The notes under the pieces are model-generated. The model had not been told where the DNA came from, searched no databases, and saw nothing but the letters and a program-made list of their open reading frames with translations. A DNA stretch of 64,000 nt from Escherichia coli (GTDB taxonomy: Bacteria > Pseudomonadota > Gammaproteobacteria > Enterobacterales > Enterobacteriaceae): the NCBI RefSeq assembly GCF_003334385.1, contig NZ_QOWN01000011.1. One strand, 5' to 3'. The translations under genes were made by a program, and so were the position numbers. Below are positions 29,465-32,895 of the stretch, in pieces (position 1 is the stretch's first letter; the number at the start of each line of letters is the position of its first letter).

Positions 29465-30649
29465 ATGAAAAAAGTCATTTTATCTTTGGCTCTGGGCACG
29501 TTTGGTTTGGGGATGGCCGAATTTGGCATTATGGGCGTGCTCACGGAGCTGGCGCATAACGTAGGAATTTCGATTCCTGCCGCCGGGCATATGATCTCGT
29601 ATTATGCACTGGGGGTGGTGGTCGGTGCGCCAATCATCACACTCTTTTCCAGCCGCTACTCACTCAAACATATCTTGTTGTTTCTGGTGGCGTTGTGCGT
29701 CATTGGCAACGCCATGTTCACGCTCTCTTCGTCTTACCTGATGCTCGCCATTGGTCGGCTGGTATCCGGCTTTCCGCATGGCGCATTTTTTGGCGTCGGA
29801 GCGATCGTGTTATCAAAAATTATCAAACCCGGAAAAGTCACCGCCGCCGTGGCGGGGATGGTTTCCGGGATGACAGTCGCCAATTTGCTGGGCATTCCGC
29901 TGGGAACGTATTTAAGTCAGGAATTTAGCTGGCGTTACACCTTTTTATTGATCGCTGTTTTTAATATTGCGGTGATGGCATCGGTCTATTTTTGGGTGCC
30001 AGATATTCGCGACGAGGCGAAAGGAAATCTGCGCGAACAATTTCACTTTTTGCGCAGCCCGGCCCCGTGGTTAATTTTCGCCGCCACGATGTTTGGCAAC
30101 GCAGGTGTGTTTGCCTGGTTCAGCTACGTAAAGCCATACATGATGTTTATTTCCGGTTTTTCGGAAACGGCGATGACCTTTATTATGATGTTAGTTGGGC
30201 TAGGGATGGTGCTGGGAAATATGCTAAGTGGCAGGATTTCAGGACGTTATTCACCACTGCGCATTGCAGCAGTGACTGACTTTATAATTGTACTGGCACT
30301 GCTGATGCTCTTTTTCTGCGGCGGCATGAAAACAACGTCGCTTATTTTTGCTTTTATTTGTTGCGCGGGATTATTTGCCCTTTCAGCACCGCTACAAATA
30401 TTGTTACTACAAAACGCCAAAGGCGGAGAGTTATTAGGTGCCGCAGGTGGGCAAATAGCGTTTAACCTCGGTAGCGCCGTCGGCGCATATTGCGGAGGTA
30501 TGATGCTGACGCTGGGGCTGGCATATAATTACGTGGCGCTGCCTGCCGCCCTGCTTTCGTTTGCTGCGATGTCGTCGTTGCTGCTGTATGGTCGCTATAA
30601 GCGCCAGCAAGCGGCGGATACTCCGGTGCTGGCGAAACCACTGGGGTAG
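29465..30649 (+). CDS. araJ: MFS transporter AraJ
   Basis: 394-aa product MKKVILSLALGTFGLGMAEFGIMGVL...; 12-TM MFS; start moved downstream of track start. Confidence 0.88.
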   Translation: MKKVILSLALGTFGLGMAEFGIMGVLTELAHNVGISIPAAGHMISYYALGVVVGAPIITLFSSRYSLKHILLFLVALCVIGNAMFTLSSSYLMLAIGRLVSGFPHGAFFGVGAIVLSKIIKPGKVTAAVAGMVSGMTVANLLGIPLGTYLSQEFSWRYTFLLIAVFNIAVMASVYFWVPDIRDEAKGNLREQFHFLRSPAPWLIFAATMFGNAGVFAWFSYVKPYMMFISGFSETAMTFIMMLVGLGMVLGNMLSGRISGRYSPLRIAAVTDFIIVLALLMLFFCGGMKTTSLIFAFICCAGLFALSAPLQILLLQNAKGGELLGAAGGQIAFNLGSAVGAYCGGMMLTLGLAYNYVALPAALLSFAAMSSLLLYGRYKRQQAADTPVLAKPLG

Positions 30650-30676
30650 GTTATAGTCTCGGTGCTCATTACTTAT

Positions 30677-30870
30677 TGCCGGATGCGGCGTGAACGCCTT
30701 ATCCGCCCTACGCGGTTCTGGCACATTTTGCAGGCCTGATAAGACGCGGCAAGCGTCGCATCAGGCATCGGAGCACTTATTGCCGGATGCGGCGTGAACG
30801 CCTTATCCGGCCTACGGTTCTGGCACCTTTTGTAGGCCTGATAAGACGCGGCAAGCGTCGCATCAGGCAT
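30677..30870. repeat. BIME: four REP units as a tandemly duplicated ~100-bp module
   Basis: TGCCGGATGCGGCGTGAACGCCTTATCCG...CAGGCCTGATAAGACGCGGCAAGCGTCGCATCAGGCAT occurs twice in tandem (about 30670-30769 and 30776-30870) with a few substitutions. Confidence 0.85.
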
Positions 30871-30893
30871 GATGCGCCAATTGCCTACGTTTT

Positions 30894-31802
30894 TTACTCT
30901 TGTGGCCATAACCACGCAGCGCCGCGTACGCCGCTGGAATCACCGTGCTTCGCCTTACGCACCGGCGTTTCACATTCGCCGCCGAAGACAAATTGTTTAA
31001 TCAACTGCCCAACCGTTTGATATAAACGGTCTACATTGCTCATCCCGCCCCCCAGGACAATCACATCCGGATCGAGAATATTCACGACATGTGCCAGCGA
31101 TTTTGCCAGCCGCAGCTCGTAGCGACGCAATGCCAGTTCCGCTACCGGATCGCTTTCTTCAACCAGGCGGATAATTTCACTGCCTTTCAGCGCATGTCCG
31201 CTCAAACGACGATAATCCATCGCGAATCCCGTGCCCGAAATAAAGGTTTCAATACAACCTTGTTTACCGCAATAACAAGGGACTTCCTCGCGATAACGCA
31301 GTTCGTCTTCGTCCATCCACGGTAGCGGATTGTGTCCCCACTCACCTGCCGTGCCATTGCCGCCGATATGCGCCCGCCCATTGAATGCCACGCCCGCGCC
31401 GCATCCCGTGCCGATAATCACGGCAAATACCGTCTGCGCTCCCGCTGCCGCGCCATCTACTGCTTCTGAAACCGCCAGACAGTTAGCGTCATTTGCCAGC
31501 CGCACTTCCCGCTGCAACCTCGCGCTTAAGTCTTTATCGAATGGCTGACCGTTGAGCCAGGTTGAATTGGCATTCTTCACCACACCGGTGTAAGGCGAAA
31601 TTGAGCCAGGAATGCCCATACCTACCGTTCCGCGCTGCCCCGTCGCCTGCTCCGCCATATCAACCAACGTGGCGATCGTTTCAATAGTCTGCCGGTAATC
31701 ATCACGCGGCGTGGGCAGACGATGGCGGTACAACTGCTCCCCTGCATCGCCCAGTGCAATCACTTCAGTTTTGGTGCCGCCTAAATCGATACCTATACGC
31801 AC
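30894..31802 (-). CDS. mak: ROK-family fructokinase/manno(fructo)kinase
   Basis: 302-aa product starting at GTG (complement 31800-31802) with AAGGAG upstream: [13 protein letters not shown]...; ROK Cys motif CYCGKQGC. Confidence 0.88.
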
Positions 31803-32838: not shown

Positions 32839-32867
32839 TTGCTGATTTTCCTTTAATGCCGGATGCG

Positions 32868-32895
32868 ACGCCTGCCGCGTCTTATCCGGCGTACG
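32868..32895. repeat. REP element downstream of rdgC
   Basis: GCCGGATGCGACGCCTGCCGCGTCTTATCCGGC palindrome. Confidence 0.7.

Follow-up and report, generated by a model that had tools for sequence, protein, structure and literature searches.

The repeat array between araJ and mak in Escherichia coli: a known BIME-2 whose unit number varies among strains

The genes araJ and mak converge on a 244-bp spacer in the window (the whole 64-kb stretch of Escherichia coli DNA analyzed here), and this spacer is almost filled by a repeat array at 30671-30870. Both genes were placed from their open reading frames and from the RefSeq annotation of the identical K-12 sequence; the start of araJ was mapped from NC_000913.3 411297-412481 by the relation window = 441946 - K-12 coordinate.

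29465-30649, + strand: araJ, MFS transporter, with its TAG stop codon at 30647-30649
30894-31802, - strand: mak, fructokinase/manno(fructo)kinase of the ROK family, with its stop codon at 30894-30896

A 641-bp query across the spacer matches E. coli K-12 MG1655, like many of its relatives, with 100% identity, and the neighbors are annotated as araJ and mak for every match to it. In NC_000913.3 the spacer corresponds to 411053-411296, running opposite to the window; the RefSeq feature table for MG1655 has no repeat_region at this locus. The open reading frames and the RefSeq annotation agree with the initial annotation of this DNA, made from the sequence alone, in placing the array between convergent genes.

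The array was detected by Tandem Repeats Finder with a period of 102, 1.9 copies, 94% matches, 2% indels, and a score of 363, and is the sole tandem repeat in the window with a score of at least 60. A repeat search divided it into two direct repeat pairs, both in register: 30671-30712 with 30775-30816 (42 nt, 98% identity, spacing 104), and 30713-30768 with 30815-30870 (56 nt, 96% identity, spacing 102). The spacing shifts from 104 to 102 because of a 2-nt indel at 30712-30713. Besides this indel, the two units, 102-104 bp in length, differ by three substitutions, at positions 30706/30810, 30725/30827, and 30731/30833 (unit 1/unit 2). The initial annotation had described a module of about 100 bp, a Y-type plus a Z-type REP, present twice head-to-tail with few substitutions and giving four REPs. 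This description stands, and comparison of the region with itself confirms that the units are homologous, with 96-98% identity in the direct repeat pairs. The extent given for the array, 30670-30870, was nearly right but slightly conservative: if a 5-nt gap is allowed in the alignment, homology between the units reaches left into 30659-30670, so that similarity continues to about 30659.

Along the array the REPs are ordered Y(+), Z2(-), Y(+), Z2(-). They are tail-to-tail inside each unit, and the units are joined head-to-head. The Y and Z2 consensus sequences used for scoring agree with the Rfam naRNA4 consensus. The segments are as follows:

30659-30677, + strand: left flank motif, like the inter-unit s linker (TCGGTGCTCATTACTTATT versus TCGGAGC-----ACTTATT in the gapped alignment)
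30678-30711, + strand: Y REP of unit 1, one mismatch to the Y consensus
30712-30729: S-type tail-to-tail linker of unit 1, 18 nt by segment parsing
30730-30766, - strand: Z2 REP of unit 1, inverted, one mismatch to the Z2 consensus
30767-30781: s-type head-to-head linker between the units, 15 nt, ATCGGAGCACTTATT
30782-30815, + strand: Y REP of unit 2, no mismatches to the Y consensus
30816-30831: S-type tail-to-tail linker of unit 2, 16 nt
30832-30868, - strand: Z2 REP of unit 2, inverted, no mismatches to the Z2 consensus
30869-30886: right flank motif, like the s linker plus the first bases of a Y REP head, ATGATGCGCCAATTGCC
30732-30768, identical to 30834-30870: 37 nt inside Z2, the longest identical in-register run between the units

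Unit 1 departs from the BIME-2 consensus in two places: its Y REP has a G-to-C change at 30706, which weakens the outer stem, and the foot tetranucleotide of its Z2 REP is GCAG rather than GTAG. The CTAC/GTAG feet are kept in the other three REPs. A two-anchor REP signature pattern has 11 matches in the window, versus none in 50 shuffles. The "s" label for the 15-nt joining linker (30767-30781) is based on its length and resemblance; linkers like it are also found in other BIME-2s of the window and in the Rfam naRNA4 consensus. At the right end of the array, a weak match to the Rfam naRNA4 model (30835-30907, 39.2 bits) aligns the flank to the model's linker. Two open reading frames lying over the array, one of 80 amino acids (- strand) and one of 77 (+ strand), were rejected as artefacts of the repeats; they are unannotated in every genome inspected.

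The araJ-mak element is a canonical BIME-2, composed of two units (Y REP, S linker, inverted Z2 REP) and an s-type linker. This class is defined by the combination of y and z2 with an S linker and s, l, or r flanks, and by tandem copies whose number differs from strain to strain (Ton-Hoang et al., 2012, PMC3333891). The individual REPs at araJ-mak are imperfect palindromes of 34-37 nt with zero or one consensus mismatch; they are extragenic, and they are repeated, the 641-bp query matching E. coli genomes at a median of 33 places each. They alternate between Y and Z2 with linkers of 16-18 nt, in tandem units whose number varies among strains. The "Z-type REP" of the initial annotation was thus a Z REP, but can be specified further as Z2 with a short S linker, hence BIME-2. 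Set against the class in the classification of Gilson, Bachellier, and Hofnung, the element shares the alternating Y and Z2 REPs, the S and s-type linkers, the tandem units, the extragenic position at gene 3' ends, and the strain-variable copy number; it shows no substantial difference, and is simply a small example, with two units. BIME-1 (RIB/RIP) elements resemble it in having an inverted REP pair that includes a Y unit, but they are characterized by Z1, by a conserved, long L linker that bears an IHF site, and by occurrence as single copies, none of which applies at araJ-mak. No Z1 unit was found among the araJ-mak REPs by consensus matching.

The element is already known, and a published table of BIME-2s contains it: Table DS3 of Sutormin et al. 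(2019, PMC6379681) includes the row "BIMEs2 410303-410493," with a length of 190 bp. Rows of this table correspond to four REP intervals of the window at a constant offset of -775, and this row is therefore the araJ-mak element. A literature search on araJ with REP or BIME returned unrelated papers only.

On either strand, every REP of the array is predicted to form a stable hairpin. As RNA, the predicted Y hairpin is -14.5 kcal/mol in unit 1, a low value that is due to the stem mismatch, and -21.3 kcal/mol in unit 2, while the Z2 REPs of both units give -20.4/-21.3 kcal/mol. As DNA, the Y hairpin is -7.2 kcal/mol in unit 1 and -11.0 kcal/mol in unit 2 (z-score -3.7 for the latter), and the Z2 hairpin is -12.7 kcal/mol in both units (z-score -5.1 in unit 2). 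Folding of the whole spacer gives z = -5.4 to -5.7 over the two strands. The minimum-free-energy structures for the whole spacer pair REPs from different units over long range, which was treated as a global-folding artefact of the repeats, and the single-REP folds were therefore relied on. An inverted repeat search at default settings returned no pairs in the array region, because the uninterrupted arms of the REPs are too short for its thresholds.

When 5,426 complete E. coli genomes were searched with the 641-bp query, all had a match, and 5,296 covered at least 80% of its length. The match spans fall into discrete classes, and dissection of representatives gave the following alleles:

One unit: spacer 127-143 bp; CUPS04, O157:H7, O111:H8, E2348/69, and others
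Two units with a 15-nt linker: spacer 244-246 bp; K-12, 22F46, LT883142, STB20-1
Two more diverged units with a 44-nt linker: spacer 268 bp; MNCRE44, O2:K2:H1
Three units: spacer 346 bp; PigCaeca_1
One unit interrupted by an IS1397-family element: Z1002, P31_YH1_02.21

In a systematic sample of 59 chromosomes (60 rows), 31 (~53%) carry one unit, 16 (27%) the two-unit form of K-12 type, 11 (19%) the two-unit form with a 44-nt linker, and 1 (2%) the IS-disrupted form; these shares are not population frequencies, because the collection over-represents laboratory and clinical lineages. A separate sample of 39 chromosomes agrees, with the classes in the same order (19, 12, 7, and 1), and it is from these two systematic samples, not from all 5,426 genomes, that the allele shares come. 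ST131 isolates in the samples have a match span of 665 bp, as do the two-unit alleles with a 44-nt linker. PigCaeca_1 is the only genome of the 5,426 to match a synthetic three-unit query in one piece, at 743/743 bases. In Z1002 and P31_YH1_02.21, which belong to one clone, the IS1397-family element is inserted between GACGCG and GCAAGCGTC, that is, in the loop of the Z2 REP; IS1397 is known, from work cited in papers on REPs, to be specific for palindromic units as insertion targets. At least part of one unit is kept in all E. coli alleles examined. The initial annotation had noted that tandem BIME copy number varies between strains and had proposed a comparison with other E. coli genomes: at this locus copy number is indeed polymorphic (5,426 genomes searched; 59 + 39 chromosomes classified), with one-, two-, and three-unit alleles.

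The REP stems also vary among these alleles. Two compensatory double substitutions keep them paired: the Z2 inner stem GACGC/GCGTC is replaced by GACAC/GTGTC in B2 strains and in E. whittamii, and the Y outer stem GCCGG/CCGGC by GTCGG/CCGAC in strain SCPM, for which E. whittamii has the uncompensated intermediate. In O111:H8, O166:H15, EC0585, and E. whittamii the hairpins are weakened or truncated, with values from -13 kcal/mol to the complete absence of a hairpin. Constraint on the araJ-mak element appears to be weak overall.

The 37-nt identical run offers a specific prediction for how unit number could change. An exchange within it should yield one spacer of 142 bp, in which unit 1 is followed directly by the right flank, and a reciprocal one of 346 bp, with unit 1, unit 2 plus linker, and unit 2 again. 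Both products are found verbatim, the first in CUPS04 and the second in PigCaeca_1. Judging from these products alone, we strongly infer that unit number is altered by homologous unequal exchange, or by replication slippage, between the near-identical units. An alternative route to copy-number change may be through a transposase, with amplification by TnpA-REP/RAYT as modeled in PMC3333891. The REPINs of Pseudomonas (Bertels and Rainey, 2011, PMC3116915), which likewise have an inverted REP doublet as the repeated unit, presumably owe their spread to a domesticated tyrosine (Y1) transposase (RAYT), whereas the copy-number changes at araJ-mak would be fully explained by homologous exchange between units.

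The longer history of the locus was approached through 13 loci from species-representative genomes, located with a degenerate pattern for the Mak C-terminus, in each of which the sequence after mak was examined. In C. braakii and C. portucalensis, araJ lies ~15 bp from mak and there is no REP; as far as sequence comparison goes, this empty Citrobacter site shows an insertion or loss event, whatever its mechanism. C. koseri has a different REP array after mak, with a period of 82 and at least 3.5 copies, and E. albertii is without araJ. In one Escherichia species the Z2 head has expanded into a (7-nt) x 6.6 microsatellite. In E. whittamii two units are still recognizable in decayed form (truncated Y, S, Z2, short linker, Y, truncated Z2), and the B2-type E. 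coli allele shares its Z2 variant GACACGCCAGTGTC and Y variant GCGCGAGCGCC. Within E. coli, one-unit alleles of different lineages mix Y and Z2 variants, with a "unit-2" type Y in SCPM and a "unit-1" type Y in E2348/69, and several of them look like deletion products. This mixture of alleles would fit, short of proof, an ancient two-unit form from which units were lost in independent deletions. The inter-unit linker (ATCGGAGCAC...) shared by two-unit alleles was considered as proof of a single origin for them, and this argument was withdrawn because similar linkers occur at unrelated BIME-2s, making it a generic family motif. The outer REPs are orthologous under either history, duplication or deletion. 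The word "duplication" in the initial annotation is thus correct as a description of structure, but the direction of change it implies is not established, since the two-unit form is also present in E. coli of the phylogroup B2 type and, decayed, in E. whittamii.

If the array has a function, it could be exercised at the RNA or the DNA level. At the RNA level, the araJ transcript would enter it from one side and the mak transcript from the other, and four hairpins (about -15 to -21 kcal/mol each) would form on the transcript of either strand. These would hinder 3'-to-5' exonucleases and would act as partial, factor-dependent transcription stops. No sigma-70-like promoters were found in 30300-31200, and no terminators consisting of a hairpin and a T-run on either strand of the same interval. 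A 2026 preprint on REPs (with an author in common with the original naRNA4 study) describes REP325 as a terminator that depends in part on Rho and as an mRNA stabilizer. Genome-wide, it reports higher expression, though not longer half-lives, for convergent gene pairs that carry REPs, and no half-life difference for genes with terminal REPs; in its supplement, araJ is found only in a differential-expression table. By analogy with REPs elsewhere, the most likely role of the araJ-mak array is as a bidirectional block of 3'-UTR hairpins, probably with a modest and context-dependent effect. Taken as a whole, the reading favored here (a BIME-2, with copy number driven by exchange, acting as a bidirectional 3'-UTR hairpin element under weak constraint) is given a probability of about 0.85.

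The main alternative is that the array is essentially neutral DNA, a selfish or "junk" repeat that entered the Escherichia lineage in a single insertion and has since drifted in copy number and decayed, without appreciable effect on araJ or mak. About half of the genomes have one unit and many have weakened or truncated hairpins, so the second unit, and perhaps the whole element, may be nearly neutral. The empty site in C. braakii and C. portucalensis, the coexistence of one-, two-, and three-unit alleles, the loss of hairpin strength in several lineages together with the 7-nt microsatellite expansion in one Escherichia species, and the tolerated IS insertion in the Z2 loop are all in keeping with this, as is the lack of a global half-life effect of terminal REPs in the 2026 preprint. 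Drift of this kind is harder to reconcile with the two compensatory double substitutions that preserve the stems, with the persistence of at least part of one unit in all E. coli alleles examined, and with the class-level evidence from the same preprint that REPs affect termination and stability. It is possible, at odds that we would put well short of even, and it overlaps with the 3'-UTR reading, which already assumes weak constraint.

At the DNA level, BIME-2s that are strongly cleaved by gyrase were reportedly described by Espeli and Boccard in 1997. The initial annotation had raised gyrase binding for the araJ-mak array, and one could suppose that the array is mainly a binding and cleavage site of this kind, a topological buffer between converging transcription units. 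As a property of the class this has a basis: gyrase cleavage sites are enriched in BIME-2s, with a preference for cutting at Y REPs and a signal that does not depend on transcription (PMC6379681). The DNA hairpins predicted for the araJ-mak REPs add cruciform potential. At araJ-mak itself, however, the Topo-Seq table of the same study lists one site with ciprofloxacin and none with rifampicin plus ciprofloxacin, with microcin B17, or with oxolinic acid; one site in one of four conditions is compatible with chance, the expected number being 0.19 and the probability of at least one about 0.18. The element is not among the 13 BIME-2s with at least three sites, and the strongly cleaved members of the class in the same table (sucB-sucC, tldD-yhdP, and eco-mqo) have 6-35 ciprofloxacin cleavage sites. 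The gyrase suggestion, sound for BIME-2s as a class, is weakened for this member, and a mainly gyrase-directed function is unlikely here.

A discrete small RNA is more doubtful still. The head-to-head Z2/Y pair at 30733-30812 on the - strand matches the Rfam naRNA4 family (RF02564) with 79.8 bits (E = 1.6e-12), above the gathering threshold of 59.5, and under the original naRNA4/HU model (PMC4550694) an RNA of this kind would bridge DNA cruciforms with HU and condense the chromosome. The Rfam model was derived from REP325, the BIME-2 between yjdM and yjdN, which has the same Y/Z2 unit structure as the araJ-mak element but consists of six units (12 palindromic units) between tandem genes of one operon, rather than two units between convergent genes. 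Because the opposite strand of the array (56.5 bits) and another BIME-2 at the end of the window (62.8 bits) also score, the model recognizes Y/Z2 pairs generally, and in effect fits any such pair; the match at araJ-mak shows membership in the REP family, not a separate RNA gene. There is no promoter-like site in or near the spacer from which such an RNA might start, and in the 2026 preprint REP325/naRNA4 had no measurable effect on nucleoid compaction and contacts between REPs were not seen. A naRNA4-like RNA encoded by this array is very improbable.

Two further functions find even less room. REPs lie directly downstream of both stop codons, where they might stall terminating ribosomes and so lower araJ and mak translation, as proposed by Liang, Rudd, and Deutscher, or might serve as intrinsic terminators; but for stalling the distance from stop codon to REP is said to be 15 nt at most (Liang et al., 2015, as cited in PMC12306157), and the gaps here are 28 nt (araJ) and 25 nt (mak), while neither strand has a hairpin followed by a T-run, and we give both ideas very little credence. 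The weakest is binding of IHF to a repeat of BIME-1/RIB/RIP type, which the initial annotation had also suggested: all that speaks for it is that some REP clusters are, in general, associated with IHF, and it is barely credible for an array with a Z2 partner and linkers of 16-18 nt. Binding of IHF belongs to the L linker of BIME-1, in which Y is paired with Z1 (PMC3333891). The IHF consensus WATCAANNNNTTR has no match in 30650-30893, the nearest being at 31010-31022, inside mak; this absence from the spacer fits BIME-2 rather than BIME-1, and with Z2 and an S linker in its place the suggestion falls at the level of sequence.

The araJ-mak array is real but ordinary. REPs and BIMEs have been described since the 1980s, and the araJ-mak BIME-2 belongs to a long-known family in which variation in copy number is a stated property of the class. 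What has been gained for this locus is the removal of the IHF suggestion, the weakening of the gyrase suggestion, and a clean allele series, with zero units (Citrobacter), one, two, and three units, an IS-interrupted unit, and decayed forms; among its natural alleles are both reciprocal products, exact in sequence, of a single unequal exchange. It is conceivable, if improbable, that unit number serves as a heritable and reversible "dial," switching among one, two, and three units at appreciable frequency and shifting the read-through and stability of araJ and mak transcripts. Were this so, unit number would contribute to expression differences between E. coli lineages, and the reciprocal one- and three-unit alleles would be natural snapshots of the switching. 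The allele series would in any case make the locus a convenient natural test bed for the effects of REP dosage on convergent 3' UTRs.

At araJ-mak, between the convergent genes of those names, the BIME-2 copy number reaches three in a single genome found, E. coli PigCaeca_1 (NZ_CP039298.1; locus L007, positions 301-646). Its additional unit matches K-12 unit 2 and the linker without a single difference. This allele and the one-unit allele of strain CUPS04 are exact reciprocals.

One-unit araJ-mak alleles can also carry an insertion sequence: in E. coli Z1002 (locus L006, 1801-2772) and P31_YH1_02.21 (locus L021), an IS1397-family element, annotated as incomplete, splits the loop of the Z2 REP, with GACGCG on one side and GCAAGCGTC on the other. 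The flanking protein accessions are identical in the two genomes, which are therefore probably a single clone. Coverage of the 641-bp query spanning the spacer was below 80% in ~130 of 5,426 genomes, and there may be further IS-interrupted alleles among these.

Elsewhere in Escherichia, the spacer of E. whittamii (locus L016; 169 bp) holds two units in a state of decay: truncation has left 16 nt of the first Y, and only the last 9 nt of the second Z2 remain. It shares Z2 and Y sequence variants with the B2-type allele of E. coli. In Escherichia sp. MOD1-EC7003 (locus L020, 8316-8361), the Z2 REP of the spacer has given rise, by expansion at its head, to a perfect microsatellite: 6.6 copies of a 7-nt unit that reads ATGCCTG on the locus strand. 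E. albertii (locus L008) is without araJ; sbcC faces mak, and there is one REP-like palindrome in the interval between them.

Three mechanically called ORFs pass through the araJ-mak array:

30434-30724, minus strand, ORF of 96 aa
30673-30915, minus strand, ORF of 80 aa
30787-31020, plus strand, ORF of 77 aa

None of these is annotated in any of the RefSeq genomes inspected, and the best reading is that the G+C-rich repeats create them artefactually.

The window contains further REP and BIME-2 elements:

4790-4826, degenerate REP element
10881-10978, degenerate REP element
32858-32894, lone REP, 20 nt past the rdgC stop codon
61828-61914, BIME-2 of one unit, Y (plus strand) followed by Z2 (minus strand)
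63884-64000, BIME-2 at the window end, its array continuing past position 64000
63884-63915, minus strand, Y REP of the window-end element
63930-63965, plus strand, Z2 REP of the window-end element
from ~63984, further inverted Y of the window-end element

In the window-end BIME-2, a 14-nt linker joins Y and Z2 head-to-head, and positions 63887-63962 score 62.8 bits against the Rfam naRNA4 model. The one-unit element at 61828-61914 is flanked at its Z2 head by ATCTGCGCACGACTTAT, which is similar to the araJ-mak inter-unit linker; the “s” linker is thus a generic motif of the family. The REP downstream of rdgC looks like a chimeric palindromic unit, since its outer stem is of Y type (GCCGGATG...) and its inner stem of Z2 type (CGACGC...GCGTC); it is entered in Table DS3 as a 36-bp BIME-2 (PMC6379681). 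Both degenerate elements have counterparts among the rows of that published table of BIME-2 elements, which gives no gyrase cleavage sites for either (PMC6379681).

Outside Escherichia, araJ and mak are only ~15 bp apart in Citrobacter braakii and C. portucalensis (loci L013 and L015), with no REP in the gap, which is an empty site. Immediately downstream of mak in Citrobacter koseri NCTC10786 (locus L014, 1-289) lies an unrelated REP array. It has a period of 82 and at least 3.5 copies (the start of the locus truncates it) with 94% matches, and couples a Y-like REP with another REP, GCCCGGTAAGCGTAGCGCCACCGGGC: this is a different BIME type, which has colonised the same position independently.
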